This document shows positions 2,796 to 41,863 of a DNA stretch of 64,000 bases, piece by piece. Origin of the DNA: an uncultured Candidatus Saccharibacteria bacterium (GTDB lineage Bacteria; Patescibacteriota; Saccharimonadia; Saccharimonadales; CAYUUR01); assembly GCA_964448075.1 (NCBI GenBank), contig CAYUUR010000001.1, positions 1,785 to 65,784 on the forward strand, read 5' to 3'. Positions within the stretch are counted from its first letter, which is position 1. Each line of letters starts with the position of its first letter. Made by a program: the position numbers and the translations under genes. The notes under the pieces were generated by a model. The model was not told the DNA's origin and did no database searches. It saw only the letters and a program-made list of their open reading frames with translations.

Positions 2796-3936
2796 AAAGT
2801 TAAAGATAGCCTATGTCCTTGATGATAGTCTCGATGGTACAGACGGTGTACAGCAGTATGTTCTGACCGTATCTGATTGGATGACTGCACAGGGTCACGA
2901 GTGTCATTTTCTAACGGGGCATACGACCAGAACTGACATTGCAAACGTGCATAGTACTACCAAGGTTCTCAAGGTACGCTTCAACAAGAATAGAATGGCT
3001 ACTCCACTACCTGCAAACAAAAAACGCCTCAGCACACTTCTAAGAGACCAGAGGTTCGACATTGTGCACGTACAAATGCCCTATAGTCCACTTATGGCTG
3101 GACGACTACTGCGCGCCCTACCAGGTAGTACTGCGGCTGTAGGTACGTTCCACATTTTGCCATTTGGGCGCCTTCATACGAGTGCAAATCGGCTACTCGG
3201 TAAAGTGAATAGCCGAACACTGCAGCGATTTGACACCATAGTAGCTGTTTCGCCAGCCGCACAGGAGTTTGCCAAGCATGCCTATGGCGTAAACTCTGAA
3301 GTCTTGCCAAACGCTGTGAATATGCAGAAGTTTCTTACTAAAAAACCGATGCATAATCGGCCACGCAAACTGAGAATCGTTTTCTTAGGGCGACTCGTAG
3401 AGCGTAAAGGGGCGCAAGAACTGCTCACCGCCCTTGATTACCTGCAAACGCACGAACCTGCCTTTATGGCGTCGGTAGAGTGCGTAATGGTGGGCAAAGG
3501 TAAAGACCTGAGACGCCTGCGAAATTACGTATCGAGCCATCATCTAGACCATACGGTCAGCTTTGCTGGGTTTATTGACGAAGCAGGCAAGCCTGCCTTA
3601 CTTGCCAGTGCTGATCTTGCTGTATTCCCAAGTCTTGGCGGTGAAAGCTTTGGGATTGTGCTCATAGAAGCGATGGCAGCGGGTGCTGGTGTAGTGCTTG
3701 GTGGCGATAACCCAGGCTATCGTTCTGTTCTGGGCGAGCGTCCAGAGTTGCTCTGTGATCCGCAGCAGACGCAAGCATTTGCTGAACGCATCAAGCTCTT
3801 GCTCACCGACCAGGAACTTCACAATAGATTGCATGCCTGGCAAACAAGAAAAGTCCATCAATACGACATAGCACAAGTCGGGCCAAAACTGCTATCATAC
3901 TACCAAGCAGCGATAAAGCAGCATAAACGGGGGTAA
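2773..3936 (+). CDS. glycosyltransferase family 4 (GT-B), paralog of preceding gene
   Basis: 387 aa; GESFGIVLIEAMAAG motif; overlaps upstream GT4 by 23 nt, so probably co-translated. Confidence 0.8.
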   Translation: MRRSDVAEKLKIAYVLDDSLDGTDGVQQYVLTVSDWMTAQGHECHFLTGHTTRTDIANVHSTTKVLKVRFNKNRMATPLPANKKRLSTLLRDQRFDIVHVQMPYSPLMAGRLLRALPGSTAAVGTFHILPFGRLHTSANRLLGKVNSRTLQRFDTIVAVSPAAQEFAKHAYGVNSEVLPNAVNMQKFLTKKPMHNRPRKLRIVFLGRLVERKGAQELLTALDYLQTHEPAFMASVECVMVGKGKDLRRLRNYVSSHHLDHTVSFAGFIDEAGKPALLASADLAVFPSLGGESFGIVLIEAMAAGAGVVLGGDNPGYRSVLGERPELLCDPQQTQAFAERIKLLLTDQELHNRLHAWQTRKVHQYDIAQVGPKLLSYYQAAIKQHKRG

Positions 3937-3941
3937 CAACC

Positions 3942-5042
3942 ATGAAGCTCTTCACAAAAAACAGTGGTTTAACCATCAATATATCAAGTCAGGCAATCGT
4001 TCGAGCCGTCGTTATCATTGCAATTACATTATTGGGTTTGCGTTTTCTAACTCAAATCAGCTATCAGCTGACGCTCATCTTTACTGCGGCTTTTTTGGCG
4101 TTAGCGCTTAACCCCGCAGTATCATGGATTGCCGACCGTTTACGAAGTAAAAGTCGGGCTCAAGCGACCGGTATGGCCTATATACTCGTTATTCTTGTTC
4201 TAGGCGCATTTGTGGCTTTTGTGGTACCACCAATTGTGCGTCAAATGGTTGACTTTGCGAAGGACATACCAAGTACGATCAGTACAGTCAGCGACCAGGA
4301 TTCTCCGGTCGGTAATTTTGTACGCCGCAATAATCTGCAGGACGAAATCGATAGTATTAGTCAGGAACTCAAAGGCAAAGTTAACCAAGTACCAAGCACG
4401 GTCATAAGTACGGCGAGCTGGGTTGGTGGTGCCGTGTTCTCTACAATTACCGTGATAGTACTATCATTCATGATGCTTATTGAAGGGCCGCGCTGGTTTG
4501 AACGCCTATGGCAGGTTCAACCGAAAGAAAAACGAAAGCACCGACGTGATCTGGCGCACCGTATGTATCGGGTTGTTACATCGTACGTGAACGGACAGGT
4601 ATTGATTGCGCTCATCGCTTCATTGTTTTCTATGGCAGCTTTACTCATTGCTAGTACTATCACCGATTCATCGATAAATGTGGTGGCTATGGGCGGTATT
4701 GTGTTCTTGCTTGGGCTCATACCGTTAATTGGTAATACCATCGCGGCAGCGATAGTTATACTGGTTTCGTTATTTAGTTCGCTTGCCTTAGCGATAACGA
4801 TGGCAGTGTTCTTTATTGTCTATCAGCAAGTCGAGAATGCTACTCTCCAACCATATATTCAGGCCAAGGGAAATCAACTCACGCCATTAATTGTCTTCGT
4901 AGCAGCGCTGATTGGCGCTGGCTTTGGTGGTATTCTTGGCGCCTTTGTTGCTATCCCAGTAGCTGGTTGTATACGTGTACTTATGGAAGAGCACTTTGGT
5001 GAGTTTGATGCTAACGCAGAGCCAGTCAAACAAACAAAATAG
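3942..5042 (+). CDS. AI-2E (PerM/UPF0118) family transporter
   Basis: 366 aa polytopic membrane protein with AI-2E-like arrangement of TM segments and a central soluble loop. Confidence 0.6.
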   Translation: MKLFTKNSGLTINISSQAIVRAVVIIAITLLGLRFLTQISYQLTLIFTAAFLALALNPAVSWIADRLRSKSRAQATGMAYILVILVLGAFVAFVVPPIVRQMVDFAKDIPSTISTVSDQDSPVGNFVRRNNLQDEIDSISQELKGKVNQVPSTVISTASWVGGAVFSTITVIVLSFMMLIEGPRWFERLWQVQPKEKRKHRRDLAHRMYRVVTSYVNGQVLIALIASLFSMAALLIASTITDSSINVVAMGGIVFLLGLIPLIGNTIAAAIVILVSLFSSLALAITMAVFFIVYQQVENATLQPYIQAKGNQLTPLIVFVAALIGAGFGGILGAFVAIPVAGCIRVLMEEHFGEFDANAEPVKQTK

Positions 5043-13398: not shown

Positions 13399-13905
13399 CT
13401 AGAGTGCGGCTTCGAGGGCGGCCCACTCGGCGCCATCTTCTTCAGGAACATTGACGCTGACTTGGTCGCCTGGCTTTGCCTTGAAGTATGTGACGCTCGC
13501 GAGCAAGACTCTGTACTGCTTGTCGCCGACCGTTACAAAGTAATGTCCGTCTTTTTGCTCGAGTACACCCACGATCTGCTTGCGTGGTATTGGGCCAATT
13601 TGCTTGTATAGGAATGCCCCGTCATCTGCAATGGTTAGTTTAAGGATGTCACCCTGTACTAGCTTTGATTTTGAGGCATAATTTGCAGGCACTGGGTATG
13701 TTTTGCCGTCAGAACCAACCATGTTCTGTCCATCAAATACACCTTCAATTACTTTGCCAAGGTTGTCATCAACAATTGCGTTAGTTACGCTCGGGTCGTC
13801 TCCTACAACGCTTACAAGCAGTTCTTTGGCTGCCGCAAGACTTGTCTCTGCCTCTGCTATTAGTGCTTTTAATCGTTTGATTTGTTTCTCTGGAAGCTCT
13901 GCCAT
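13399..13905 (-). CDS. hypothetical protein
   Basis: ORF-track frame 13399..13929 starts at TTG. The first ATG (13903-13905, MAELPEKQ) is more likely. No recognisable domain. Confidence 0.5.
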   Translation of the reverse strand: MAELPEKQIKRLKALIAEAETSLAAAKELLVSVVGDDPSVTNAIVDDNLGKVIEGVFDGQNMVGSDGKTYPVPANYASKSKLVQGDILKLTIADDGAFLYKQIGPIPRKQIVGVLEQKDGHYFVTVGDKQYRVLLASVTYFKAKPGDQVSVNVPEEDGAEWAALEAAL

Positions 13906-14011
13906 CGTTTTGGTCTCTCTTTTTACCAATAAGTGTTTATTGGGTACACTTACTCCTCAAGCTATCATGATTGTGTAATCAAGTCAAAACTATATGGAGT
14001 TTTCTGTGGAT

Positions 14012-15670: not shown

Positions 15671-16150
15671 TCAAGCCGGCAACTCAGCACGCATTGTGTC
15701 GAACTCTACTGCTGCCTCACGGACCACTCGTGAGTACAGACTATATACTGCATCAGCTTCTTCCATGATCATTATGCCCTGGGTTGCTCTTATGCGTGCT
15801 GCTTCGACTACTCGTTCATAGTCCTGAGATACGTTGAGTTTAGCTCCGCTATCGCGAATGTCTACTTCGCTTGCACATGCCTCTACGTAGGCTACTACCT
15901 CACAGAACTCGTGAGAATTAGTCTCGGCAATTTCAATAATCAATGGATCGTCGTTGCGTATGTGTTTCGGTTCCTTAGAGCCAAACTCTAATGTGGGCTT
16001 CATGCTGCCACGTTGTACAAACATGCTGTAGATGGTTCTGTCAGTGAACCTTATATGGATCGATGGCGTTATGATCTCTTTGATTGGTCCTATGTCTGTA
16101 GGGTCAATGTCGTGAAACTGTTCCCATCGTTTTTCTCTTGTTTCTATCAT
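15671..16150 (-). CDS. hypothetical protein (159 aa)
   Basis: ATG with strong SD (AAGGAGAcuacaaATG); own terminator; no recognisable domain. Confidence 0.55.
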   Translation of the reverse strand: MIETREKRWEQFHDIDPTDIGPIKEIITPSIHIRFTDRTIYSMFVQRGSMKPTLEFGSKEPKHIRNDDPLIIEIAETNSHEFCEVVAYVEACASEVDIRDSGAKLNVSQDYERVVEAARIRATQGIMIMEEADAVYSLYSRVVREAAVEFDTMRAELPA

Positions 16151-16664: not shown

Positions 16665-17045
16665 ATGACTAGCGAGAATAAGATGAGTGTATTTGAGAAA
16701 GCAGCAGTAGAAACGCCTGAGCCGAAGGATGAGCTACAGGAATACGCCGAGAAGGCGGCGCTTGGAGTATTTGAAAACTTTCAGGAGTTTGTAGACGGCC
16801 GTAGCAATGATTTCTCGGCTTACTTTGTACTTGGTAGCGATATACATGACAGGCAGAGAGAAATCTTTATGGGGTTGATAAGTGAATTCTATGAATCAAG
16901 CACTCAACTGCCTGAAGGAGCACTTGTGGTTACGGATAACGTAACACTTATGGCTTCATGTAATGCTTATATTGATCCTGATTCGCAAATAGCTATCCCA
17001 TACGACATCACGTACACCGCGACGCGGTTCGATTCAAATTTATAG
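16665..17045 (+). CDS. hypothetical acidic protein (126 aa)
   Basis: Only sizeable plus-strand ORF in this island; no clear SD; no recognisable domain. Confidence 0.4.
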   Translation: MTSENKMSVFEKAAVETPEPKDELQEYAEKAALGVFENFQEFVDGRSNDFSAYFVLGSDIHDRQREIFMGLISEFYESSTQLPEGALVVTDNVTLMASCNAYIDPDSQIAIPYDITYTATRFDSNL

Positions 17046-19334
17046 CTTTTTGAGCTTGTACTGGGTATAGCGCTCGGCGGCAAGCCGAGTTAACTCTTCG
17101 TCTTCACCTTTGTTTACAAACAGCATCGCGTCTGCCATCAGGGGATGCACTTTTGCTAGCTGTTCGTGCATTTGCAAGACGAGCTTACGGTAGCCTGGGT
17201 GCCCTTGTGGTGAGGTGCGGAGCTCATGAAAATGAAAAGCTTCCCGGGCATTGTACGTTATCTTCCAACGCATGCGATGCCCAAGCAACGTGGCGTACTG
17301 AGCCTCTAAACTATGCCCCTCAGCTTGCAGAAGACTGTACAGGGCAAGAGACAAATCAAAGCATTGTTCAAATGCATCACTCAGGCCGGCCTCTTCGATG
17401 AGTGCAGGTATTTCGTATCCGTAGCGTGGCGTCAGTTGTTGCCAGTTTAGATCGTCAACCATACGGTGTCGTTGCAGGTCGCGGAAGATCCCGTAGTCGC
17501 ACATGATGTCCCAGCTGTAGTGTGCCTTTTCGAACGCACGGCCAGGTTTGTGGCGGCGGTTGAGACGTTCACCTACTGACGCCTTGAACACAGCGTATTT
17601 CTTATCATAGCCCCATTCGCTTACTTCCTGTCTGATTTGCTCGAGCGGCAAACTACTATGCTCGTACAAAATATCCGCCACGATGTCTATCTCGTTGCGT
17701 GGCCAGTAGTCTGTCAGCGTGACCGGTTCTGATGGCGCACTATGCTGTTCAGGCAGCTGTTCATGAGCAATTGCTTTAACAGCCTGGTGCGTGTTAGCGC
17801 GATAGGCTATCAATGCACCGCCGCGATCAGGCCTGTCAGCCCTCTCCAAGAACGTAGGGATGACTTTGCGGGCCTCGTCGAGCAATTGTTGGCCAACAGT
17901 ACGTGCTTCTGGTAGCTCATCACTGAGCAGATGCATGATGAGCGACTCGAGCGCCTGCCCAGATGCATAAATACCCACTGTCGCTGTTGTTGCTACGGGC
18001 AGGACTGGTCGAACTGCATCACATGCTTGGGCTCGAACGGCTCCTTTCCAAGCTATATCGCGCTCCTTGGCAGGAACAGATGATTTATTGCCGATGTAGT
18101 CAGTTAGTTTGTGTACCATATAAGAATACAAATCAAATATCTGATCCATAGACTGAGCATACTGTTGAGCAACCTTTGCCGATAGTGAAGTCGGTGTAAA
18201 GTAGCGGTATTTACCATTGTCATCCTTGCGGTCAAAGTAAATATAGCGGGTTGATTGCTCGAGATATGCTGCCAATCTGCCCCATTCGAGTTTCTTTGTC
18301 AGGAGATTTGATGCGTTTTCAACGACAACATGTTGGCCTACCAGCTGTTGGACAGAATCATCACCGTATGCAGTGATAACTCGCTGCAATAGCTTTTCAT
18401 CTTTACCTGCAGATCCAATAAACTCATCCAATATTGTGACGCGCATATCATCAGCTCGGCGACTCAGCCGAGCCATGGCTGCCGCAATCGTCAGTGGCGT
18501 TAGGGTATCGTTAAATGCGTATACATTCCCACTCGTGTTGGTAACTGCAGTGTCTAGATATGCTTTGCCTTCGTCTGTGATGACGAAGTTACCTTGCTCT
18601 GATTTTGCTAGGTATGCAGGTGTATCCTCTGTTACGGGGCTGTTAACTGCAGGTTGCGATGCGCTTGATGATACAGAAACAGTATGGTCGATTTTGATCG
18701 TCTCACCAGGTTGGCCAAGTAAAGCGGCCACATGGTTCCATATCTCACGAGCAACTGTTTCGGCAGAACCTATAGCATAAACGACTGGCAAAGATCGGTT
18801 GTGTGCCTCCCAGAGGTACCCAGAACGCACTTTCTCTAGAAAATCAGCTTGGAGTGTGTCAAACCTTTCTGCCTGGTACCGTTCTGACATACGCTCTTGA
18901 AGCACTTTCACCGGTGCATCCAGTACGACTGTTAGATCGGGCTCCATGCCATCTATGGCGAAATTAATGATCTGATTAATTGTTTCATAGTCTTTGATGT
19001 CGCCGCGCGCATAATACTGGATTGCCAGGGTTGTAAGATAGCTACGGTCAACTAAGCAGTTAATGCCTTGATTGATGCTACGCTTGATACTCTCGAGCGA
19101 CTCCGAACGGGCTGCGTTATATAACAGTACCTCTGTGCGTGTGTTCATTGGGTAGCGTGGATCTTGTGTGAGGCTCCGGATGGCGCGAGCGGTGAGACTT
19201 GTTTGGCTATCTGGCTCACGAAAAACACGGACATCTAGTCCCTGCTTACGTAAATGATCAGCCAGGAGATTCAGTTGGGTTGATTTGCCGACTCCTTGGG
19301 GCCCTTCGATGACAATGTATTTACCCTTAGTCAT
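17040..19334 (-). CDS. fusion protein: thymidylate kinase (N-terminal) + long-form flavin-dependent thymidylate synthase ThyX
   Basis: 764 aa. N-terminus has IVIEGPQGVGKSTQ P-loop and LVDRSYLTTLAIQY (Tmk). The C-terminal ~550 aa carry ThyX-type motifs (LARLSRR; FRDLQRHRM...TPRY; FHELRTSPQGH), about twice the length of a single ThyX domain. Confidence 0.75.
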   Translation of the reverse strand: MTKGKYIVIEGPQGVGKSTQLNLLADHLRKQGLDVRVFREPDSQTSLTARAIRSLTQDPRYPMNTRTEVLLYNAARSESLESIKRSINQGINCLVDRSYLTTLAIQYYARGDIKDYETINQIINFAIDGMEPDLTVVLDAPVKVLQERMSERYQAERFDTLQADFLEKVRSGYLWEAHNRSLPVVYAIGSAETVAREIWNHVAALLGQPGETIKIDHTVSVSSSASQPAVNSPVTEDTPAYLAKSEQGNFVITDEGKAYLDTAVTNTSGNVYAFNDTLTPLTIAAAMARLSRRADDMRVTILDEFIGSAGKDEKLLQRVITAYGDDSVQQLVGQHVVVENASNLLTKKLEWGRLAAYLEQSTRYIYFDRKDDNGKYRYFTPTSLSAKVAQQYAQSMDQIFDLYSYMVHKLTDYIGNKSSVPAKERDIAWKGAVRAQACDAVRPVLPVATTATVGIYASGQALESLIMHLLSDELPEARTVGQQLLDEARKVIPTFLERADRPDRGGALIAYRANTHQAVKAIAHEQLPEQHSAPSEPVTLTDYWPRNEIDIVADILYEHSSLPLEQIRQEVSEWGYDKKYAVFKASVGERLNRRHKPGRAFEKAHYSWDIMCDYGIFRDLQRHRMVDDLNWQQLTPRYGYEIPALIEEAGLSDAFEQCFDLSLALYSLLQAEGHSLEAQYATLLGHRMRWKITYNAREAFHFHELRTSPQGHPGYRKLVLQMHEQLAKVHPLMADAMLFVNKGEDEELTRLAAERYTQYKLKKL

Positions 19335-20040
19335 ACGCCAATCCGTCTAGTTTTGTCGGCATGGAACGCTTGTCACGGTATGCTTGAGGTAACATCATAT
19401 CTGGTGACCAAAGTCGTTTTATATCCTCTATGTTTGTGCCCTGCTGGTACTTACCACTGAAGCCACTATCTCTACCAGAACCGTAATTTCCGGCAACTTC
19501 GCCAGTTTCATGGAATACCGCCTGCCCTATTCGTTCGCCTACAGGCAGCACAACCGTTTCGCGGTGGTTAAGGTTATATATCTCAAGCGTTAGGCGGTTG
19601 ATATAGCCTGGGTCGATCCATCCAGCGTCAAAGCATACGGCGATACCGTTTCTCCCCCAGCTTGAGCGGCTCTTAAGTTCACAGGCACCTGGCGGATTAA
19701 TGCCAAAGAATTCATGCGTATGCGCGAGGATGCGTTCGCCGGGCTTCAATGATATTACAGGATGGTCCGGCGGGATACTCGTTAGCAGCTTAAACCCGTT
19801 TAAGGCTGCCCAATCTTTGTGAGGCATCGCTTTATACGGACCGTCAAAGTACCGTTCAACATCTTCCTTATCAAAGGGATTGTAGATAACGCGCTCGTTA
19901 GTACGCTCAATCCGATAATAATGATAACCAAGCGTTACATCGAGACTGGCTTGTGAGACATGCCGGGGATTAAATGGTTGGCAAATAATGTGCCCCTCAT
20001 CGAGAGCTTGTCTGATCTGCGTATTGCTGTATACCCCCAT
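19327..20040 (-). CDS. dcd: dCTP deaminase family protein (possibly bifunctional dCTP deaminase/dUTPase)
   Basis: 237 aa; Dcd/Dut-fold sequence (SLDVTLG..., LTLEIYNLN); 8-nt overlap with the tmk::thyX start. Confidence 0.75.
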   Translation of the reverse strand: MGVYSNTQIRQALDEGHIICQPFNPRHVSQASLDVTLGYHYYRIERTNERVIYNPFDKEDVERYFDGPYKAMPHKDWAALNGFKLLTSIPPDHPVISLKPGERILAHTHEFFGINPPGACELKSRSSWGRNGIAVCFDAGWIDPGYINRLTLEIYNLNHRETVVLPVGERIGQAVFHETGEVAGNYGSGRDSGFSGKYQQGTNIEDIKRLWSPDMMLPQAYRDKRSMPTKLDGLAYD

Positions 20041-20122
20041 GGAACTCCTTTACCCCTAGTTTCTGCACTCATTGTACGTTTTATCACATATATGCCGCAA
20101 TAGAGCGCGAACGCTTTTTGTT

Positions 20123-20152
20123 GTATTATTTGCAAGTCAGTGTTTTAGTCAA
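20123..20152 (-). promoter_or_regulatory. candidate promoter of dcd-tmk::thyX
   Basis: Minus strand TTGACT (20147-20152), 18-nt spacer, TAATAC (20123-20128). Confidence 0.35.
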
Positions 20153-20154
20153 GT

Positions 20155-20183
20155 AAAAAGCACCACGTAGCGCGGTGCTTTTT
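20155..20183 (-). terminator. intrinsic terminator after rplA
   Basis: Stem GCACCGCG/CGTGGTGC (one G-U) flanked by A5 and T5 runs, 20 nt after the rplA stop. Confidence 0.7.
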
Positions 20184-20201
20184 ACAGGTTAAATGCTACT
20201 A

Positions 20202-21164
20202 CTATGAGTTAGCAATTTCGCTGACGGCAAGCTTCATGCTCGGACCCATCGCTGTAGTTACATATGCGGCTTTGACATATGAACCTTTAATAGAAGATGG
20301 CTTAGCGGCACGAATACTTGTGGCTACGGCCTGTGCATTCTCTAGGAGCTTTTCAGGGCCAAAACTAACTTTGCCGATTCCCAGGTGTACAATTCCCGTT
20401 GTATCGACACGGAACTCAACACGACCGGCCTGTGCATCCTTGACGCCTTTTACTACGTCGGTTGTGACAGTACCACTCTTTGGGTTTGGCATAAGTCCTT
20501 TAGGACCGAGCACACGAGCGTACTTACCAAGCTTACCCATCATCTGTGGTGTGGCAATAAGTACGTCAAAATCGAAGGTGCCTTTATCAAGTAGTTTTGT
20601 TACGGCTTCTTCGCCAGAAATATCTGCGCCGGCTTTTTTAGCTGCTGCAGCATCTTCAGAGTCAGCAAAAACAGCAATCTTCACTGTCTTGCCAGTTCCG
20701 GCTGGCAGTGCCACGATATCACGGATATTTTGATCTGCATGACGTGGGTCTACACCGAGGTTGATGTGGAGTTCTACGGTTGCATCAAACTTGACTGGGC
20801 TTGTTTTGGTAGCCAGTGTCAAAGCTTCTTTGAGCGTGTATTCTTTTTCAGCATCGACAAGCTTAGCAAGTTCACGGTACTTTTTGCTCTTGCGTTCTAG
20901 TTGGCTTTTGGGCGGGTTTTGCTTCTGTTTTGGCTTTGCCTCTGCGTCAGCTTCAGATTTCTCTGCTTTTCGTGCTTCTTTTGCTTCCTTTTCTTCAGCT
21001 TCTTTAGCGGCTTTAGCACTTCGCTTACCGGCTTTAGCGGTAGCTTTTTCTTCAGTAGCTTCTTCTACTGGTTCAGTAGTTTCAACGACGGTTTCCTCGA
21101 TGGGAGTTACTACGGTTTCTTTGATCTCTTCATTTTTAGTGGTTTTCTTCTTGGCTTCTGCCAT
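20202..21164 (-). CDS. rplA: 50S ribosomal protein L1 with ~90-aa Lys/Glu/Ala-rich N-terminal extension
   Basis: 320 aa; L1 core from about residue 92 (KKYRELAKLVD...); N-terminal low-complexity tail. Confidence 0.93.
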   Translation of the reverse strand: MAEAKKKTTKNEEIKETVVTPIEETVVETTEPVEEATEEKATAKAGKRSAKAAKEAEEKEAKEARKAEKSEADAEAKPKQKQNPPKSQLERKSKKYRELAKLVDAEKEYTLKEALTLATKTSPVKFDATVELHINLGVDPRHADQNIRDIVALPAGTGKTVKIAVFADSEDAAAAKKAGADISGEEAVTKLLDKGTFDFDVLIATPQMMGKLGKYARVLGPKGLMPNPKSGTVTTDVVKGVKDAQAGRVEFRVDTTGIVHLGIGKVSFGPEKLLENAQAVATSIRAAKPSSIKGSYVKAAYVTTAMGPSMKLAVSEIANS

Positions 21165-21226
21165 AACTATGCTCCTTTGTGGTGCGAACCCCGACTACAC
21201 GTGTGTGGTCAGGTCCCACAATCTTA
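21165..21226 (-). promoter_or_regulatory. rplA 5' leader / translation initiation region
   Basis: Minus-sense ...TTGTGGGACCTGACCACACACGTGTAGTCGGGGTTCGCACCACAAAGGAGCATAGTT-ATG; 5' TGTGG can pair with CCACA next to the SD. Confidence 0.4.
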
Positions 21227-21472
21227 TTAATTTATTACTTGTTCCTGAACGTTAATTGCTTGGGCGCTTTCAACCAAGCGTCCTACTGCATCTCGTATCT
21301 CTTGTAACCGTGCCACCGCCAGTGGGTCACCCCGCTCGGCTCGGTCAGTTATCTCTGCAATGCGTTGTCGATGCGTAGTAAGCGCATGTGTAGCGTTATC
21401 TAGCGTTGACATAAGATGATAGGTTCCACCATCTTCTCTGTCTACTACTGATTCGTGCGTGATATGTGTCAT
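21227..21472 (-). CDS. hypothetical small protein (81 aa) between rplK and rplA
   Basis: ATG start preceded by a copy of the rplA leader and SD; fills the spacer; no recognisable domain. Confidence 0.5.
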   Translation of the reverse strand: MTHITHESVVDREDGGTYHLMSTLDNATHALTTHRQRIAEITDRAERGDPLAVARLQEIRDAVGRLVESAQAINVQEQVIN

Positions 21473-21529
21473 ATACTTCCTTTGTGGTGCGAACGGCTGT
21501 TGTCAGCCTGCCACAGTTAAAAACGAATG
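21473..21529 (-). promoter_or_regulatory. duplicate of the rplA leader in front of the 81-aa ORF
   Basis: Minus-sense ...CTGTGGCAGGCTGACAACAGCCGTTCGCACCACAAAGGAAGTAT-ATG; 17-nt exact identity GTTCGCACCACAAAGGA with the rplA leader (21173-21189 vs 21478-21494). Confidence 0.45.
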
Positions 21530-21871
21530 TTATTTATCTGGGCTAAGTCTGTCTGATATCCCGTACTCCGCACAAAGTGCGTCCGCCGCGTCATCGTGAC
21601 CCAGAGCTCTCTGTTGCCAGATTTCACCAACTTTCCTGTCGAAGTCATCAATATATGTAGGTTCTAGTACGGGAACTTCGTGGTGAGAAATGAAGTAACC
21701 GAGACCAGTGGGGGTTCGAAGGACCTTAACGTCGCGTGTGCCCTCAGGATTGACTAACTCGATTGATGCGGCAAAGACATCTGGCTGTTGCATGTCGATG
21801 TCGACAACCGTATGAGGGTTTAGCTCAGTTAACTGAATTGTGCTGTCGTAAGGAGATAGACGTCCATCCAT
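21530..21871 (-). CDS. hypothetical small acidic protein (113 aa), translationally coupled to rplK
   Basis: ATG lies 3 nt after the rplK stop (TAA ATT ATG); no recognisable domain. Confidence 0.5.
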   Translation of the reverse strand: MDGRLSPYDSTIQLTELNPHTVVDIDMQQPDVFAASIELVNPEGTRDVKVLRTPTGLGYFISHHEVPVLEPTYIDDFDRKVGEIWQQRALGHDDAADALCAEYGISDRLSPDK

Positions 21872-21874
21872 AAT

Positions 21875-22306
21875 TTACTCTGCAATCTCCACGCCCATTG
21901 AACGCGCAGTGCCTGCAACCATCTTTTTGACCGCAGCGATGTCGTCGGTGTTCATGTCTTGTGCTTTGACTTCGGCAATTTCGGTCAGTTGCTGGTCGTT
22001 TAGTTTTTGGGGTAGCTTCTCCATGTTTGGCTTGCCGGAGCCTTTTTTGACACCGAGTTTTTCACGGATGAGTTCGTCGGTCGCGGCATTTACGTAGCGG
22101 AAGTCCATTGTACGGTCGTCGTAGATGGTTATGTGTGCAGTCAGCACACCTTTGAGGTCACGGGTTTGTTCATTGAAAGGATTGATAAAATCCATCATGT
22201 TGACACCGTACTGACCGAGGGTGCTACCAACCGGTGGCGCAGCACTGGCTTTGCCAGCTGGAATGCGCATCTTGAGGTTTGCTTTTACTTGTTTGGCTCC
22301 TGCCAT
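21875..22306 (-). CDS. rplK: 50S ribosomal protein L11
   Basis: 143 aa; LKMRIPAGKASAAPPVGSTLGQYGVN typical of L11. Confidence 0.96.
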   Translation of the reverse strand: MAGAKQVKANLKMRIPAGKASAAPPVGSTLGQYGVNMMDFINPFNEQTRDLKGVLTAHITIYDDRTMDFRYVNAATDELIREKLGVKKGSGKPNMEKLPQKLNDQQLTEIAEVKAQDMNTDDIAAVKKMVAGTARSMGVEIAE

Positions 22307-22374
22307 TATGTTCTCCTTGAATTGATTGCTCGTGCGGTGAAGCGTCCGCTAACGTGCGTAACTAAATAAGTATA

Positions 22375-22668
22375 CTACACTTCACCCCTGTTGTCTACTC
22401 TTATGCCAAGGATCTCATCTATCGTTATAAGATCCTCTCGCAATGATTCTACTTGCGCAGAGCTCACGGCACTAACACAGCCCAAAAGCAAGTTAACTTG
22501 TTGACGAACAAGCGCTCGTTCTTCAGCAGTAGTTCCTGCTTCATCCGCGTGATTGTCATCCCAAACAAGTTCACGATTGATACCTTCGATCGTCTCTAGA
22601 CCTTGCCGTAAACTAAAGCAAGCGCCATGCAGTCGTTCGAGTTTGTTTCGAGTCTGTTCTGACCCCAT
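22375..22668 (-). CDS. hypothetical small acidic protein (97 aa), translationally coupled to nusG
   Basis: ATG lies 3 nt after the nusG stop (TAA ACT ATG); fills the nusG-rplK spacer; no recognisable domain. Confidence 0.5.
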   Translation of the reverse strand: MGSEQTRNKLERLHGACFSLRQGLETIEGINRELVWDDNHADEAGTTAEERALVRQQVNLLLGCVSAVSSAQVESLREDLITIDEILGIRVDNRGEV

Positions 22669-22671
22669 AGT

Positions 22672-23214
22672 TTACACTCGTTTTACTTGGAGGGAATCGA
22701 GCTCGACTGGTGTTTCACGACCAAACATATTGACCAAGACCTTGAGTTTGCCTTTGGCAGCGTCAATCTCATTGATAGAGCCATCAAAGCCTTTGAAAGG
22801 ACCGTCGGTAATGTTGACGACATCGCCAATATTAAAGTCAATCTTGTGTTTTGGTTCATCACGGCCCATACGCTTGAGGATTTTTTCAATTTCGGCGTCA
22901 GACACTGGGGTTGGCTCTACGCCACTACCGACAAATCCGGTCACACTCGGCGTATTTCGTACAATGTACCATGCGTCTTCACTCAGCTTCATCTGCACGA
23001 GAACGTAGCCTTGGAAGATTTTCTTCTCAACGACTTTGCGCTTGCCGTTTTTGACCTCGATCATCTTTTCTTTAGGTACAAGTACCTGAAAGATCTTATC
23101 GGCCATATCGAGACTGTCAGCACGCTGACGAATACTCTCAGCTACCTTTTCTTCGTAGCCGCTATAGGTATGAATGGCATACCACTGTTTTTGTGAATCG
23201 TATCGTTTGCTCAT
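22672..23214 (-). CDS. nusG: transcription termination/antitermination factor NusG
   Basis: 180 aa; NGN domain (WYAIHTYSGYEEKV) and KOW motif (GDVVNITDGPFKGFDGSI). Confidence 0.95.
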   Translation of the reverse strand: MSKRYDSQKQWYAIHTYSGYEEKVAESIRQRADSLDMADKIFQVLVPKEKMIEVKNGKRKVVEKKIFQGYVLVQMKLSEDAWYIVRNTPSVTGFVGSGVEPTPVSDAEIEKILKRMGRDEPKHKIDFNIGDVVNITDGPFKGFDGSINEIDAAKGKLKVLVNMFGRETPVELDSLQVKRV

Positions 23215-23603
23215 GAACCTAGTAGTACCTTTCTAAATAGTTTATCTAAGCCGTAATCGGTTATCGCGATGATGAGTCCAAAGACCAAGGTGAACATAAT
23301 AACTGCGCTGGTAAGCCTGACTGACTCTTTGCGAGATGGCCAAGTAACTTGTTTGACCTCAGCCCAGCTCTCACGGAAGTATTTAGGGATAAATCGTCGC
23401 CGTTTGTTTAAGAAACGACCAACCTTATTGTCAGGCATTGGCAAGTAATACTCTTTACCCGCCGTACGTTTGACCGCGCTTGCTCCACCTTTGGCGCTCA
23501 CCGTTGCTTTCTTGAGTCTTCGCGGTTTCTTGTCAGCATTTGCTGAGGTCTGCGCGGCTTTTTCACGCAAGGTTTGTTTCTTACCAATCGGTTGCTTTGC
23601 CAC
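23211..23603 (-). CDS. secE: preprotein translocase subunit SecE with basic N-terminal extension
   Basis: 130 aa; GTG start with SD AAGGAGA; C-terminal SecE core (EVKQVTWPSRKESVRLTSAVIMFTLVFGLII). Confidence 0.85.
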   Translation of the reverse strand: MAKQPIGKKQTLREKAAQTSANADKKPRRLKKATVSAKGGASAVKRTAGKEYYLPMPDNKVGRFLNKRRRFIPKYFRESWAEVKQVTWPSRKESVRLTSAVIMFTLVFGLIIAITDYGLDKLFRKVLLGS

Positions 23604-23635
23604 CTAATGTCTCCTTACCGCATCTGCGATCTAAT

Positions 23636-23661
23636 AAAAAGAACCTACTAATATAGTAGGT
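23636..23661 (-). terminator. intrinsic terminator after histidine kinase gene
   Basis: 8-bp stem ACCTACTA/TAGTAGGT followed by a U-run on the minus strand. Confidence 0.6.
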
Positions 23662-23704
23662 CTCGACATGTCAATAGTACCTCACTGAGCTTCTAGGGTC
23701 AAGT

Positions 23705-24808
23705 TTATTTGAGATTAGGAAAATATACACTAAAAGTCGAGCCTTTATTGAGTTCGCTCTTGAGTTCTAATTCTGCATGCACAAGACGCGCAAGCTTCAT
23801 AGTCACGTACAGGCCAAGACCCGTTCCGCTGCTTTTTCGCGTACGAAAGTCTTCACTGCGAAAGAACTTGTCGTATACACGTTCTTGATCGCCTTTGCTA
23901 ATACCGATCCCTGTATCAGTTATTGCAAAACATATACCGTTATCCTTAGGTTTTGCGGCAATCGTAACTGAGCCTTTTTCGGTGTACTTAATAGCGTTGG
24001 TTATGAAGTTTTGCAGGACTTCGCGTACATAGAGCTGACTAGACTTCAATGCTTCAAGCTTGGGGTCCAGTGTGGCATATAACTTTAAGCCTTTGGCTTC
24101 TGCATCGGGTGTGTAGTTTTTTACGAGTTCAGTGACGAGTTCATGGGCGTTGATAGTTTCAACCTCAACGTTTAGCTTACCGCGTTCGGCACGCGAAAGT
24201 GTAGAAAGGTCATTTATGAGGCCGGATAAGAACGTAATCTGGTTATGCGCCTGGTGCAAAGCATCAATAACCGCAACATTATCGTTGCCAGACTTGTTGA
24301 CGATAAATTCTGCGTTACTGATGTTTCCTTCCGCTATAGCTATCGGTGTACGAAGTTCGTGGCTCACTACGCTAATGAATTCATCGCGTTCTTCCTCAAG
24401 TGACTTCTCACGAGTGATATCACGCATCAGCACCACATAGCCTTGCATGCCTTGCTGCCCGTAGCCGAGCTTTACTGGCGCAATACTTAAATACAAGCTT
24501 GCCATACTGTCGTCACCATATTTAAGGCGGAAATCGCGTGATGAGGTAGAAGTAGTTGCTCCTCTCACAAGTGCCTTGACATCAACTGGCTGGTTATTCT
24601 TATCTACAAGTCGTAAAACGGTGCTGAGAGATTTGTTTTGAATCTCACTGTTAAGGTCCAGGATATTAAGTGCTGCACCATTGTAAAATAGAATCTTTGC
24701 TGTTTGGTCCGTGGCTATAACACCATCACCCATACTATTGATAAGACTTCTGAGACGTTCGTGTTCGAGTTCGGCAGTTGTGTCGTTTGTTTCGCGTGGT
24801 TCAGGCAT
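23705..24808 (-). CDS. cytoplasmic PAS-domain sensor histidine kinase (no adjacent response regulator)
   Basis: H-box SHELRTPI plus N and G boxes (HATPase_c); PAS-like N-terminus; no TM segment. Start moved to ATG 24806-24808 to avoid overlap with the upstream gene. Confidence 0.8.
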   Translation of the reverse strand: MPEPRETNDTTAELEHERLRSLINSMGDGVIATDQTAKILFYNGAALNILDLNSEIQNKSLSTVLRLVDKNNQPVDVKALVRGATTSTSSRDFRLKYGDDSMASLYLSIAPVKLGYGQQGMQGYVVLMRDITREKSLEEERDEFISVVSHELRTPIAIAEGNISNAEFIVNKSGNDNVAVIDALHQAHNQITFLSGLINDLSTLSRAERGKLNVEVETINAHELVTELVKNYTPDAEAKGLKLYATLDPKLEALKSSQLYVREVLQNFITNAIKYTEKGSVTIAAKPKDNGICFAITDTGIGISKGDQERVYDKFFRSEDFRTRKSSGTGLGLYVTMKLARLVHAELELKSELNKGSTFSVYFPNLK

Positions 24809-26393: not shown

Positions 26394-27962
26394 TTAGGGG
26401 AGTAGCTCAGTTGGTAGAGCACCGGTCTCCAAAACCGGGTGTCGCAGGTTCAAGTCCTGTCTCCCCTGCCATATAGAACTTTCAGTAAGTTTCAGCACAG
26501 TTGCAAACGGTTCGTTAGGTGTAAAACGGACCGTTTTGCCTTTCAGTGAGAGGTTCGATAGCACAATACTGATAATCTGCCGCTTTTCTTCATCGTTAGC
26601 AACTTCAAAGATTTTATCGCCGTGTTTGAATAGCTGTAACAGATACGAAGCTGTCGCATAGAAGTTTTGATCTGCGTCTTCTAGCCGTGCTAATTGACCG
26701 TCTATCCTTGCTATTTCTTGGTCGTACCGACCTTTGTTTTCGTTATAATCATCGGGAGTAATACTACCGCTAGTCATTGCATCAAAGGCAACACGAATAC
26801 GGTGCTTGTAGTCATCACGGTCAGTCCGTAGCTTTTTGAGCATATCGTCTTGGAAGCGGTTTTCGGCTTCGTGTGATGACTTTACTTCTGTTTCAAGACG
26901 AGCAATTTCATCGGCAGGTATGTTCTTGAAGGCTTTGAACACTGCCATAAACTGGGCGGTCAAATCAACTTGGGTTACATAAGTAATCTTCTTGTGTTTT
27001 TTTCGGGCATTGGTGCAATGATAGAAATGGTAGCTATGCTCATTTCCGTTCTTCTGTTTCTTTTCACGATATTCAGTCGTTACCGCACAGCCACAGTCTG
27101 CACAGGTTATCAGACCACGATAGATAAACGGTATGCCAATAAATCGCCGTTTACCTAGTCGGTTACCGTCTAGCACATCCTGGACCATTTCAAACAGCTC
27201 ACGACTGACGAGCTGTTGGTAAGTGTGTACATATTCTTTACCGCCACCTTTCTTATCAACGATTATACCGATATAAAACTTATCACGCAGTATGTCGTGA
27301 ACACGGCTTTTTGACAGATTAACCTTCAATTCTTCGGCTATCTTGCGGCGTAGACTTTCGCAAGAATACGCACCAGTCGCAAATAGCGTGAACATACGCT
27401 TAACTACTTCGCTGTTAAAAGCATCGGGCTGAACCGATTTTTGTCGTGTGCCTATGGTTACATTGTTGTAGCCGTATGGAGCACCCCACGGCAGTTCGCC
27501 CCGTTCTAGCTTGGATAGTTTGGTGTTCATACCATCTTCTTTGATGCGTTCAAGCTGCGACTTGGCAAACATTACTTTAAAGTCCCATTGGATAATTTCA
27601 TTTGATCGGCTTTCTTGCGACAACACAAGCCTATCATCAATAAAGTGCAGCTTTACTTTGTGTTTGGTGCGAAGCTCATCAATCAATACGCTGTCACGAA
27701 AGTTGCGTGTTATACGGTCTACCCGAAACGAAACAATATCTGTTACCTTGTTTTTCTTAGCAAAACTAACCATTTCCTGAAACTTATTGCGAGCCTTGTA
27801 CTCACTGCCAGTTTCACTAATTTTGAAAGTTTTGATGACATTCAAGCCGTTGGTTTTGGCGTATTCTTTTGCACGGGGTAGCTGTATTTCTTCTAGCGAC
27901 AAACCTTCTGTTTCTTGCCGCTTGGTGGATACACGGGCAAAAATGATGGTCTTGTTGCTCAT
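26394..27962 (-). CDS. large serine recombinase (integrase)
   Basis: 522 aa; resolvase catalytic domain (IIFARVSTKRQ, VDRITRN), recombinase domain, Cys-rich zinc ribbon (CADCGC...YHCTN), long coiled-coil region. The last 25 codons are antisense to tRNA-Trp. Confidence 0.88.
   Translation of the reverse strand: MSNKTIIFARVSTKRQETEGLSLEEIQLPRAKEYAKTNGLNVIKTFKISETGSEYKARNKFQEMVSFAKKNKVTDIVSFRVDRITRNFRDSVLIDELRTKHKVKLHFIDDRLVLSQESRSNEIIQWDFKVMFAKSQLERIKEDGMNTKLSKLERGELPWGAPYGYNNVTIGTRQKSVQPDAFNSEVVKRMFTLFATGAYSCESLRRKIAEELKVNLSKSRVHDILRDKFYIGIIVDKKGGGKEYVHTYQQLVSRELFEMVQDVLDGNRLGKRRFIGIPFIYRGLITCADCGCAVTTEYREKKQKNGNEHSYHFYHCTNARKKHKKITYVTQVDLTAQFMAVFKAFKNIPADEIARLETEVKSSHEAENRFQDDMLKKLRTDRDDYKHRIRVAFDAMTSGSITPDDYNENKGRYDQEIARIDGQLARLEDADQNFYATASYLLQLFKHGDKIFEVANDEEKRQIISIVLSNLSLKGKTVRFTPNEPFATVLKLTESSIWQGRQDLNLRHPVLETGALPTELLP
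26396..26471 (+). tRNA. tRNA-Trp (anticodon CCA), CCA end encoded
   Basis: Hand-folded cloverleaf: acceptor AGGGGAG/CTCCCCT, D arm GCTC/GAGC, anticodon arm CCGGT-CTCCAAA-ACCGG, T arm GCAGG-TTCAAGT-CCTGT, discriminator G, CCA. Confidence 0.9.
26450..26469 (+). repeat. attL core (TCAAGTCCTGTCTCCCCTGC)
   Basis: Identical 20-mer at 32983-33002; flanking bases differ on both sides. Confidence 0.85.
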
Positions 27963-28147
27963 ATATCAACCTTGCTGTCTTCTATCAGCTTATGAACATC
28001 ATCTATCTTGAAAAGGTACGACTTACCGACTTTGTAGGCGGTAATCTTGCCTGATTTTATCCATCTATAAATGGTTATTTTGCTAACTTGGAGCAATTCG
28101 CAAACATCTTCAATCTTGTAGAATTTGCTATCTTTCATACTTATCAT
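27959..28147 (-). CDS. excisionase-type helix-turn-helix DNA-binding protein
   Basis: 62 aa; YKIEDVCELLQVSKITIYRWIKSGKI resembles the Xis/AlpA (HTH_17) family; 4-nt overlap with the recombinase start. Confidence 0.6.
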   Translation of the reverse strand: MISMKDSKFYKIEDVCELLQVSKITIYRWIKSGKITAYKVGKSYLFKIDDVHKLIEDSKVDI

Positions 28148-28163
28148 TATATATCATTCCTTA

Positions 28164-29321
28164 TCACTTATCTAAATATCTTTGTAACTTTACAGGCTCA
28201 AACTTTTGTAACTGGCTTTCTATAATGTCAAAGCTGGCAATTTTTCGTCTAGCGAAGTTTAGGCTGTTTATCTTCTTGTTCAGGTTATACCATTGTTGGC
28301 TAGTGAAGTTACCGATATTACGGACATCACGGCTTCCTGTGGTTTCAAGCAATGTCTTATACGCAACAGCTTCCATAATCGTACCTATTTGCGTTCGTGG
28401 ATTTTGTATTGATAACTCAGTCAATAGTGCAGGTGCGGTTTTATCAGTCAGCGAGATAGCTGGATAGGTTTCACGCAGTTTGGTTATTTCGTACCGCAAC
28501 ATCTTCTTGGCGGTGGTTTCGTTGAACAGATCACGGAAAGTTAAACTATCAGTCTGTAAACCTGCATCTTTGAACGACTTTTTGATCTGTGGTCTACCAA
28601 TGTACCGTGCTTCAACACGCACCATTTCAAACGGACTGGCAAGCGGTTTTTCATCAAATAGTGATAGCTGGCAGTAATAGTCTTTTTCTAGCAAGCCTTT
28701 TTCGGTAACTTTAGACTTTGTGTGTTCTTTTAGCTTGTCATAGATACACAAGCCCCACTTACTGCTGTAAAAGTGCATTGCTTCGCCGTTGTTGATGTAC
28801 TTTTGCCCGTCACTTTTCTTGCGTGTCGTATAGTTGCATTTTTCTAAGTCGGTTATGATGGCGTGAGCAGTTGAATAGTCGGTCAGCGTTATGTTTTTAG
28901 AATAGTGTATGGTGCTGACCATTGCGTCTTTAAGCGTGTTCGGACCAGTAACTACCACGCCGATATTGTGTAGTTTGCGTTGTAGCTGGACGCACAGGTA
29001 ATCAAAATCGCTTTGCGTTATTTCATTAAAATTGTCGTTATGAACGACCTTTTGTGCAGAAAACTCAATGTTGAGAGTGATGGGTACGCCACCACGGCGT
29101 ACTGCCTTAATAAGCGTCAGGCGGGGTATATAGTTGCCGTCAGCCTTTTCTTTGGCGGTTGGGTTGCGTTCTACCAAAAAAGCCTTCTTTGTGCCGAACT
29201 GAACAAATGGCGGTCTAAAGAAATTGGTTACATCTGTCGCAAACTGTTTGTAGCAACCTTCCATCAGCTCAAAGTCTTTACGCCATTCTAGCGTTATTAC
29301 TACTGTATCTACCATTTTCAT
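28164..29321 (-). CDS. putative rolling-circle replication initiator (Rep_trans / phage gpII-like)
   Basis: 385 aa. N-terminal MVDTVVITLEW and the motif GLCIYDKLKEH resemble the xRIYDKxxE box I recall from this family. From memory only. Confidence 0.35.
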   Translation of the reverse strand: MKMVDTVVITLEWRKDFELMEGCYKQFATDVTNFFRPPFVQFGTKKAFLVERNPTAKEKADGNYIPRLTLIKAVRRGGVPITLNIEFSAQKVVHNDNFNEITQSDFDYLCVQLQRKLHNIGVVVTGPNTLKDAMVSTIHYSKNITLTDYSTAHAIITDLEKCNYTTRKKSDGQKYINNGEAMHFYSSKWGLCIYDKLKEHTKSKVTEKGLLEKDYYCQLSLFDEKPLASPFEMVRVEARYIGRPQIKKSFKDAGLQTDSLTFRDLFNETTAKKMLRYEITKLRETYPAISLTDKTAPALLTELSIQNPRTQIGTIMEAVAYKTLLETTGSRDVRNIGNFTSQQWYNLNKKINSLNFARRKIASFDIIESQLQKFEPVKLQRYLDK

Positions 29322-41318: not shown

Positions 41319-41573
41319 TTACTGAATGACTGGCCAAACTGACTCCTGTGCACCTTTGGGTGCAACAAGTACGTCACGAGCGCCTGCTAGTATTGCAAGG
41401 TAGTCGCGCTTCAACTCTGATTTCATGTCAAATACATCAATCTCAACACAAACACCGACAGCTGAACGTGCAGCAGCTAGTAGCATCTGGGATTGCATGA
41501 ATGGTTTCAATTTTTCTTGTTGTATTTGATCAGCAATTTCTTGAATATGCTTATTTCTTTCTTCTAATTCCAT
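41319..41573 (-). CDS. hypothetical small protein (84 aa)
   Basis: ATG with SD AAGGAGA; no recognisable domain. Confidence 0.45.
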   Translation of the reverse strand: MELEERNKHIQEIADQIQQEKLKPFMQSQMLLAAARSAVGVCVEIDVFDMKSELKRDYLAILAGARDVLVAPKGAQESVWPVIQ

Positions 41574-41614: not shown

Positions 41615-41863
41615 TTATGTTGCTCGTTTATCACGCGCTTCTTTTTGTTTGACTTGTGCTTCGCGTAGTTGGGCTAGTGCCATAACTGCTGTTCTGTGCA
41701 TTTGCTCAAGTTTACCGCGATGTTCTTCTTCGTCCTGGCCTTCAATAAATCTTGACTGCCAGTTTTCGTTTTCCCATGATGCCCATTCTGCAATTAGTTC
41801 ATCTCCTCGTTGGTTAATGTTGTTTTCTTGCTCTGGGGTCATAGGTGATTCAAATTCGTTCAT
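41615..41863 (-). CDS. hypothetical small acidic protein (82 aa)
   Basis: ATG with SD-like AAAGGAA; no recognisable domain. Confidence 0.45.
   Translation of the reverse strand: MNEFESPMTPEQENNINQRGDELIAEWASWENENWQSRFIEGQDEEEHRGKLEQMHRTAVMALAQLREAQVKQKEARDKRAT

Follow-up and report, generated by a model that had tools for sequence, protein, structure and literature searches.

Small genes of narrow distribution are known from several described systems. Integron cassettes are short, mostly orphan, promoterless open reading frames (ORFs) that are stacked co-directionally at a fixed site, are driven by upstream signals, and differ in content between close relatives. Hotspots flanked by core genes, including the effector/immunity arrays of type VI secretion systems (T6SS, PMC5361080), and phage morons occupy fixed positions where genes are replaced by non-homologous ones, with homology in the flanks as the likely route of exchange. 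Species-specific orphan genes, whether native or formed de novo (PMC11293555), are short, taxon-restricted, and fast-evolving and have no detectable homologues. In Actinobacteria, Cyanobacteria, and Chloroflexi, rplA is preceded by a published L1-interacting RNA (Fu et al. 2013, PMC3616713), whose short stem is broken by an internal loop with G-A at its start. Here, we analyzed three small acidic ORFs of 97, 113, and 81 amino acids (aa), hereafter ORF97, ORF113, and ORF81, that lie between nusG, rplK, and rplA of an uncultured Candidatus Saccharibacteria bacterium, an affiliation with which our database matches and retrieved relatives agree. The window is the whole stretch of 64,000 nucleotides (nt) from contig CAYUUR010000001.1 that was analyzed. 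Judging from their substitution patterns, the three ORFs are genuine protein-coding genes under purifying selection. In the account that we consider probable, they are small acidic soluble, dispensable, lineage-restricted passengers in permissive slots of the secE-nusG/rplK-rplA cluster, two such slots in general and three in the window's cluster. Slot 1 runs from the nusG stop codon to the rplK promoter, and slot 2 runs from the rplK stop codon to an L1-type hairpin upstream of rplA.

The integron features listed above recur at these slots, where zero to four ORFs are stacked. Unlike integrons, the slots have no intI-type integrase near them. The nearest recombinase is a large serine recombinase (26394-27962) located 4 kb off in a separate integrated element. 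No attC-like inverted repeats flank the ORFs; a repeat search of 21100-22750 returned only a 17-nt leader repeat and a single inverted pair of 12 nt whose members are separated by 510 nt. In place of attI/attC, the slots have a promoter and an RNA hairpin as boundaries, and expression of their ORFs apparently depends on stop-start coupling. The fixed positions, the non-homologous replacement, and the conserved flanks are shared with core-gene-flanked hotspots. In contrast to those hotspots, the slots sit inside nusG-rplK-rplA, among the most syntenic of bacterial gene strings, and they are occupied by single tiny ORFs that lack signals for their own expression, whereas morons come with a promoter and a terminator. 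No family of effectors or immunity proteins was detected. Orphan genes match in length, restriction, and evolutionary rate, but the slot ORFs stand at defined coupled positions, are nearly all acidic, and are under clear purifying selection. The slot ORFs thus belong to none of integrons, hotspots, or morons, which serve as analogies only. The hairpin that closes slot 2 resembles the published L1 autoregulatory structure in its position, directly 5' of rplA between rplK and rplA, and in its stem with a G-A-starting internal loop. It differs in that an extra copy before a nonribosomal ORF is absent from that paper.

Coding evidence for the three ORFs

ORF97 (22375-22668, minus strand, as are all features of the cluster) occupies slot 1, ORF113 (21530-21871) occupies slot 2, and ORF81 (21227-21472) lies between two copies of the rplA leader. 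A first reading of the sequence without database searches, hereafter the sequence-only reading, had reported 3-nt spacings at the two upstream junctions. The junction sequences confirmed them, as nusG passes into ORF97 through GTG TAA ACT ATG and rplK into ORF113 through GAG TAA ATT ATG, each with a stop-to-start gap of 3 nt. The possibility that these are chance ORFs in widened noncoding spacers draws on the lack of homologues beyond the clade, the lack of domains, and the poor structural model of ORF113. In 5000 dinucleotide shuffles, the nusG|rplK spacer gave a sense ORF of 97 aa or longer with P = 0.005, and sense ORFs covered 588 or more of the 710 nt of the rplK|rplA spacer, again with P = 0.005. 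Antisense ORFs in the two spacers reached 46–48 aa at most. The composition of the window spacers alone gave moderate support for genes, with chance being unlikely but not negligible.

The comparison with relatives was decisive. Homologues with intact frames occupied the same slots in close relatives. A search of 5.8 billion proteins returned one to four homologues per ORF with 66–85% identity, always on contigs with the same gene order. Over this set and one of 1.84 billion proteins, homologues were confined to the same slot of close relatives. The order L11-ORF113-ORF81-L1 recurred in three independent assemblies from different sequencing runs. Nei-Gojobori estimates of the ratio of nonsynonymous to synonymous substitutions per site (dN/dS) were 0.09 for ORF97 (dN 0.11, dS 1.2), 0.07–0.11 for ORF113 (dN 0.14–0.44), and 0.09–0.26 for ORF81 (dN 0.06–0.20), compared with 0.004–0.07 for nusG, rplK, rplA, and dcd. 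The dN of the three ORFs was about 5–35 times that of nusG, rplK, and dcd. The proportion of nonsynonymous differences (pN, 0.05–0.33) was always far lower than that of synonymous differences (pS, 0.26–0.88), and the family alignments contained invariant blocks. The ORFs are therefore under purifying selection on their amino-acid sequences, which indicates that the encoded products are of consequence. Frames maintained over dS >1, the share of sense over antisense ORF in 55 kb of long Saccharibacteria spacers (71% vs 7.6%), and the frame-specific acidity described below also speak against chance. We therefore give chance ORFs a negligible probability, and the substitution pattern already refutes them. 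This bears out the sequence-only reading, which had argued against chance ORFs from the near-complete use of each spacer in one frame. It had named loss of the frames in relatives that keep the spacers as the outcome that would count against genes; the frames were found intact.

The same reading had described the three products as acidic, without a recognized domain, and mutually dissimilar, and all three points held. Their isoelectric points (pI) were 4.6, 4.4, and 5.4 for ORF97, ORF113, and ORF81, respectively, and they showed neither similarity to each other nor a paralogue elsewhere in the window. No match was found in Pfam (E values up to 1) or in PADLOC, PHROGs, and NCBIfam (E values up to 0.001). 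The best E value against PDB sequence profiles was no lower than 0.19, and tblastn against phage genomes gave no match.

A homologue of ORF97 with 85% identity occupies the same slot in loci L007-L009 (loci of other Saccharibacteria carry L numbers). ORF97 has no Shine-Dalgarno sequence of its own, and its last seven codons (VDNRGEV) and TAG stop lie inside the rplK promoter. Its AlphaFold2 (AF2) model is a three-helix bundle with a mean predicted confidence (pLDDT) of 75, and no significant PDB or viral fold match was found for it. We also considered a WXG100/Esx-like helical hairpin. EsxB was among the best Foldseek PDB matches, but with E = 2.9 and a template modeling (TM) score of 0.36, and the turn reads W-D-D instead of W-x-G, so this was rejected. 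Homologues of ORF113 showed 52–77% identity, all in the same slot. ORF113 covers 95% of slot 2 and stops 14 nt before the first L1-type hairpin. A HMMER profile of its family, searched against the 1.84 billion proteins, returned the family itself and three long proteins at E ~1e-4. These proteins carry repeated Big_12, P_proprotein, and CarboxypepD_reg beta-sandwiches and were dismissed as relatives because the scores are noise summed over repeats. The AF2 model of ORF113 was poor (pLDDT 48.6) and too unreliable for a fold search. Homologues of ORF81 (68–91% identity) occur at the same position, and ORF81 is missing from L010 and L007, both of which have a single leader. We rejected the idea that ORF81 arose by duplication and divergence of the 5' end of rplA, as no DNA or six-frame similarity to rplA was found. 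A promoter-like site lies inside the 5' part of ORF81 (21416-21444, minus; TAGACA, 17 nt, TATCAT; 10 of 12 matches), which may be due to chance.

Occupancy and turnover of the slots across Saccharibacteria

Slot 1 was examined in 79 loci. The nusG-rplK spacer was 20 nt or shorter in 9 and had room for the promoter and leader only in 16, leaving no room for an ORF in 25 of the 79 species. It exceeded 170 nt in 54 loci, 50 of which held at least one co-directional ORF of at least 50 aa, and up to four. Slot 2, examined in 83 loci, was 30 nt or shorter in 29 and 150 nt or longer in 51, of which 43 had co-directional ORFs that covered a median of 95% of the slot and ended a median of 10 nt before the hairpin. 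The first ORF began within 10 nt of the upstream stop codon in 36 of 50 slot-1 loci (median 5 nt) and in 37 of 42 slot-2 loci (median 3 nt), and median ORF lengths were 86–99 aa. The 3-nt spacing noted in the window is thus one instance of a stop-start pattern found at both slots throughout the phylum. The sequence-only reading had also asked whether each slot is conserved, empty, or filled by unrelated ORFs in relatives. The comparison gave all three answers, with slots being empty, holding a homologue (in the closest relatives only), or holding unrelated ORFs. A full-text search of the literature found no description of this pattern in Saccharibacteria.

Nine loci (L021, L043, L061, L068, L070, L071, L075, L080, and L088) have nusG-rplK gaps of 6–12 nt and lack the rplK promoter and leader. 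Their slot 2 is mostly minimal, the exception being L021 with an 85-aa ORF, and several have leaders of low GC content. These nine may represent a streamlined or ancestral state.

The 141 slot ORFs formed 120 BLASTP clusters, of which 106 were singletons. Only 3 matched Pfam, 1 PADLOC, 4 PHROGs, and none NCBIfam, and no toxin-antitoxin family was among the PADLOC and Pfam matches. A pI below 6 was found for 96% of co-directional slot-2 ORFs and 81% of slot-1 ORFs (88% overall), compared with 27% of window ORFs. The median pI of slot ORFs was 4.74 in the ORF frame and 9.2–11.2 in the other five frames, with a window background median of 9.2. This frame-specific acidity points to a common constraint. 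Hydrophobic segments of membrane or signal type were absent from the three window ORFs and from slot-2 ORFs and were present in about 29% of slot-1 ORFs.

The proposal that the ORFs encode lineage-specific ribosome- or RNA polymerase-associated factors came from the sequence-only reading and, in the sense of conserved components, was not supported by this comparison. Such factors could be acidic proteins that partner or chaperone L11, L1, or NusG. The ORFs are co-transcribed and apparently coupled with nusG and rplK, ORF81 apparently shares an L1-type leader with rplA, and acidic proteins would suit basic ribosomal partners. However, with 25 of 79 species lacking ORF room in slot 1 and slot 2 empty in 29 of 83, slots are empty in about one-third of species, while the supposed partners remain 73–99% identical. 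Relatives whose L11 and NusG are 98–99% identical carry unrelated slot-1 proteins. Homologues were found only in genomes with L11 92–99% identical, with unrelated occupants elsewhere, and no similarity to known ribosome-associated families was detected. We hold such a role to be highly unlikely.

Turnover was apparent within the window's own clade. Mutually unrelated slot-1 ORFs of 97 aa (window and L007), 106 aa (L001), 130 aa (L093), 116 aa (L095), and 103 aa (L010) were found, and four mutually unrelated ones occurred among relatives with rplK DNA 87–93% identical. L093 and L095 share rplK at 93% identity (dS 0.34) and the promoter and leader at 97–100%, whereas their slot-1 bodies are 30–45% identical, which is the random level. 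The edges of identity are sharp, lying at the nusG stop codon and just before the -35 box. By this pattern, the difference between L093 and L095 is one of replacement, not divergence. ORF97 is common to the window and L007 (rplK 81% nt identity) and is not found in the closer L001, L093, and L095. ORF113 and ORF81 are common to the window and L001, L093, and L095 but not L007, whose slot 2 holds one unrelated 84-aa ORF. L010 has an ORF113 homologue (52–56% identity) and no ORF81. The distributions of ORF97 and of ORF113/ORF81 among relatives therefore do not track phylogeny.

Alternatively, a single ancient gene specific to Saccharibacteria could reside in each slot and either evolve too fast to be recognized beyond close relatives or be reborn de novo in place. 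Position, orientation, coupling, acidity, and length (the medians given above) are similar within each slot, and weak similarities (E 0.001–0.1) were about two-fold more frequent within than between slots. ORF113 identity fell from 66–77% to 52–56% while that of L11 fell from 98–99% to 93–94%, and neutral DNA would be unalignable at the dS of ~1 that separates most compared genomes. The random identity and sharp edges of the L093 and L095 slot-1 bodies at an rplK dS of 0.34, the phylogenetic mismatch just described, and the range from zero to four ORFs per slot argue against this alternative, which we consider unlikely.

Regulatory elements that bound the slots

Slot 1 ends at an rplK promoter element, TAGACAACAGGGGTGAAGTGTAGTATACT (22369-22397, minus). 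An alignment of the 120 nt that precede rplK in ~80 Saccharibacteria species, which had been retrieved with L11, revealed the strongly conserved element TAGACAACAGGGGT-N4-TGTAGTATAAT, followed by GTTACGCAC and then a leader hairpin. In the window, the promoter has a -35 box TAGACA, a 17-nt spacer, and a -10 box TATACT, and it was the best site of a promoter scan (10 of 12 matches). The element is present in most Saccharibacteria loci, occurs once in the 64 kb, and was absent from 100 shuffles. It contains stop codons in all three frames, and the last slot-1 ORF stops within it in 24 of 43 loci. Unrelated proteins, ORF97 among them, end in VDNRGEV because their frames terminate inside this conserved promoter. 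The window leader (22307-22362, minus, defined by alignment of 80 loci and by folding) consists of GTTACGCAC, a hairpin with a GCUUCA loop, and an AAGGAG Shine-Dalgarno sequence. Over the 68 nt that separate ORF97 from rplK, the window is 94% identical to L001 and L010, compared with 84–87% over rplK coding DNA. Promoter and leader may together constitute an undescribed rplK regulatory RNA or operator. Rfam contained no family for this leader or for the rplA leader, either at gathering thresholds over the window or at E values up to 10 over 20000-23800.

Three further observations concern this element. Across loci L010-L089, the 29-nt promoter element is conserved far more than a usual sigma-70 promoter. 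An inverted repeat, ACAG...CTGT, lies within its spacer. The rplK leader occurs in two types, one with the GCUUCA-loop hairpin and a longer form with GGGAAGGAG...CCGUUCGAA, which resembles the L1-type motif.

According to the sequence-only reading, each ORF fills nearly its whole spacer. Near-complete filling was confirmed, but the fill ends at a conserved regulatory element and not at the next gene, because each spacer holds such an element short of that gene. A rival reading is a function in cis, in which translation of the spacer itself matters and the peptide is a harmless acidic byproduct. Untranslated inserts would expose the mRNA to Rho-dependent polarity or decay, and only fully open inserts would survive. 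The filling of slots to ~95% by unrelated ORFs that start within 10 nt of the upstream stop codon fits this idea, as do the 24 of 43 slot-1 loci where the last ORF lacks its own stop codon and runs into one in the promoter, which gives unrelated proteins the VDNRGEV tail, the nearly complete lack of relation among slot sequences, and a uniform acidic bias that suits benign products. However, the dN/dS values and invariant blocks indicate selection on amino acids, polarity across slot 1 should matter little when rplK has its own promoter, and the frequency of empty slots shows that the spacer itself is not needed. A purely cis role of this kind is quite unlikely, since the products are under selection.

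Slot 2 ends at the hairpin upstream of rplA, which reads GUGG-GA-GGC...GCC-GUUUGCA-CCAC and is followed by AAAGGAG. The P1 pairing GUGG/CCAC is invariant, with the GA internal loop on the 5' side. P2 shows compensatory changes at all four pairs, with 95.4% of cells paired. Compensatory cells numbered 76 vs 15.5 in shuffles, and the covariation score was 0.312 vs 0.113, both matched by 0 of 500 shuffles; the signal was lost when the pairing partners were slid. A covariance model (R1) built from 20 hairpin copies gave, in a second search, 83 matches in 78 of 81 sources, with two copies in 5 sources. The hairpin is matched once per locus, lies on the sense strand, and ends ~5–10 nt before the rplA start codon. 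Position and covarying shape suggest that these hairpins are L1-binding autoregulatory leaders.

The window carries two copies. Copy 1 (GUGGCAGGC...GCCGUUCGCACCAC AAAGGAAG, hairpin and Shine-Dalgarno sequence, 21473-21515, minus) lies directly 5' of ORF81 and scored 52.7 bits with R1. Copy 2 (21168-21220, minus) lies directly 5' of rplA, forms the right boundary of slot 2, and scored 40.3 bits. The two share a 17-nt exact direct repeat (21478-21494 and 21173-21189). Copy 1 has GUGGCA where the consensus is GUGGGA, which may weaken L1 binding, and P2 of copy 2 has been remodeled through compensatory changes (CCUGAC/GUCGGG). No 23S rRNA was found in the 64-kb window. A second rplA hairpin with its Shine-Dalgarno sequence precedes ORF81 in the window, L001, L005, L094, and L095, and relatives without ORF81 have a single hairpin copy. 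In L054, a distant species, two nearly identical 45-nt leader copies (3628-3669 and 4215-4256) flank an unrelated 175-aa acidic ORF, for which comparison at the DNA level and in six frames gave no similarity to rplA. Leader duplication around an inserted ORF is thus found independently in the window's clade and in L054.

Upstream of the slots, secE (23211-23603) is followed by nusG (22672-23214; Pfam NusG, 2.7e-30), the left boundary of slot 1. rplK (21875-22306; Pfam Ribosomal_L11_N and Ribosomal_L11) encodes L11 and is the left boundary of slot 2. rplA (20202-21164) encodes L1 and matches Pfam Ribosomal_L1 (8e-60) over residues 120-308 only. Its product has a K/E/A-rich N-terminal extension of ~100 aa, whose length differs among species. 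Downstream of rplA lie dcd and a tmk-thyX fusion, with the L10 leader and rplJ 5 kb beyond, and other neighbors of the cluster encode a histidine kinase and a YgjP-like protein. Nucleotide-metabolism genes between rplA and rplJ thus interrupt the usual rplKAJL string. The fusion is a 764-aa thymidylate kinase-ThyX protein (17040-19334, minus).

Expression, exchange, and role of the slot genes

The anatomy suggests how passengers in these slots could be expressed. Ribosomes ending at the nusG UAA would restart at the ORF97 AUG 3 nt further on, and ORF97, having neither promoter nor Shine-Dalgarno sequence, would be read until the stop codon in the rplK promoter. ORF113 would be translated by ribosomes leaving rplK and would end 14 nt before the L1-binding-type hairpin. 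ORF81 would be initiated independently and repressed by free L1 along with rplA, because it carries a copy of the rplA leader with hairpin and Shine-Dalgarno sequence. High expression of the slot ORFs, as presumed in the sequence-only reading, is suggested by operon position.

The slot boundaries are among the most conserved DNA of the genome, and the most plausible route for swapping slot contents would be homologous recombination in these conserved flanks. A leader-ORF-leader arrangement could result from a crossover within the leader, for example, through integration of a molecule bearing a leader copy. The sequence-only reading had offered selfish or hitchhiking cassettes as an option. Hitchhiking agrees with the replacement seen in the comparative data; as to a selfish nature, neither a mobility gene nor an attC-like repeat nor a toxin-antitoxin signature was detected. 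Because slots can be empty and their contents are replaced, the slot proteins would have an accessory function and not be part of the translation machinery. A core ribosome or RNA polymerase factor is improbable precisely because the products appear dispensable and exchangeable. With low confidence, we suggest that they are strain-specific binders, inhibitor- or immunity-like, whose partners are basic or bind nucleic acids.

Several points weigh against interpreting the ORFs as exchanged, coupled passengers. The ORF caller used the most upstream start codon, which biases the median stop-start gaps of 5 and 3 nt downward, and the translational coupling of ORF97 and ORF113 is predicted from spacing alone. 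Since dS is ~1 or saturated in most pairs, the dN/dS ratios are approximate. Fast divergence in situ probably contributes to part of the slot diversity. Many loci come from metagenome-assembled genomes or from short contigs of metagenomes, in which a chimera of strains can look like recombination. L094 and L095 illustrate this (L094:1-1074), being 100% identical from rplK over ORF113 and leader copy 1 up to ~100 nt into ORF81, after which identity falls abruptly to 57–77%. This switch may be a recombination breakpoint or a chimeric 1-kb assembly and was not relied on. No mobility or recombination machinery was associated with the slots, the slot ORFs had no match to an immunity or antitoxin family, and the predicted structures were uninformative.

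A bolder version, which we put forward tentatively and regard as unlikely to hold in full, treats the sites as integrase-free cassette slots in translation operons, each running from a stop-start site to a regulatory element and together holding a phylum-wide set of recombining, hypervariable acidic microproteins. The slots would lie after nusG, after rplK, and within duplicated leaders of rplA; rpsG, fusA, tuf, and rpsJ may be followed by such slots as well. Their products would be conflict proteins, that is, immunity or anti-effector binders made in step with the ribosome, or the slots would be a gene nursery where translated inserts mature into new genes.

Other parts of the window also hold small ORFs. 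Co-directional ORFs without Pfam matches lie in the rpsG|fusA|tuf|rpsJ|rplC junctions (62888-63346, 60381-60791, 58387-58821, 57084-57779, and 56760-57035, minus). Four are acidic (152, 136, 144, and 231 aa), and one is basic and membrane-like (91 aa). The 136-aa ORF begins 5 nt past the fusA stop codon, and the 152-aa ORF stops 3 nt before the fusA start codon. The slot phenomenon may extend to the str/S10 operons. More small acidic orphans without Pfam matches (pI 4.1–5.1) occur downstream of rpsI, upstream of the L10 leader, and downstream of rplL (41615-41863, 41319-41573, 15671-16150, and 13399-13929, minus; 16665-17045, plus). The integrated element that contains the serine recombinase (Resolvase, Recombinase, Zn_ribbon_recom) spans 26394-29321 and adjoins a tRNA gene (26396-26468). 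It also encodes an HTH_17 excisionase-like protein and a Phage_CRI (G2P-type) replication protein and is probably inovirus-like or plasmid-like.

Herein, what we consider worth recording is the slot architecture across the phylum and the leader duplication; the three ORFs alone would be hypothetical proteins. The nusG-rplK-rplA string is a paradigm of frozen synteny and a phylogenetic marker. Across this phylum of ultra-small episymbionts, tiny acidic genes that are unrelated to each other have landed in it repeatedly and would borrow transcription and translation from their neighbors. The slots provide a repeatable place to study the origin of orphan genes, expression without dedicated signals, and gene exchange, and they flag a large untapped class of microproteins in genomes thought to be streamlined. 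Copying of the leader shows how a foreign gene could come under ribosomal feedback control. Annotation pipelines and marker-gene concatenations for the candidate phyla radiation (CPR) should expect such inserts.

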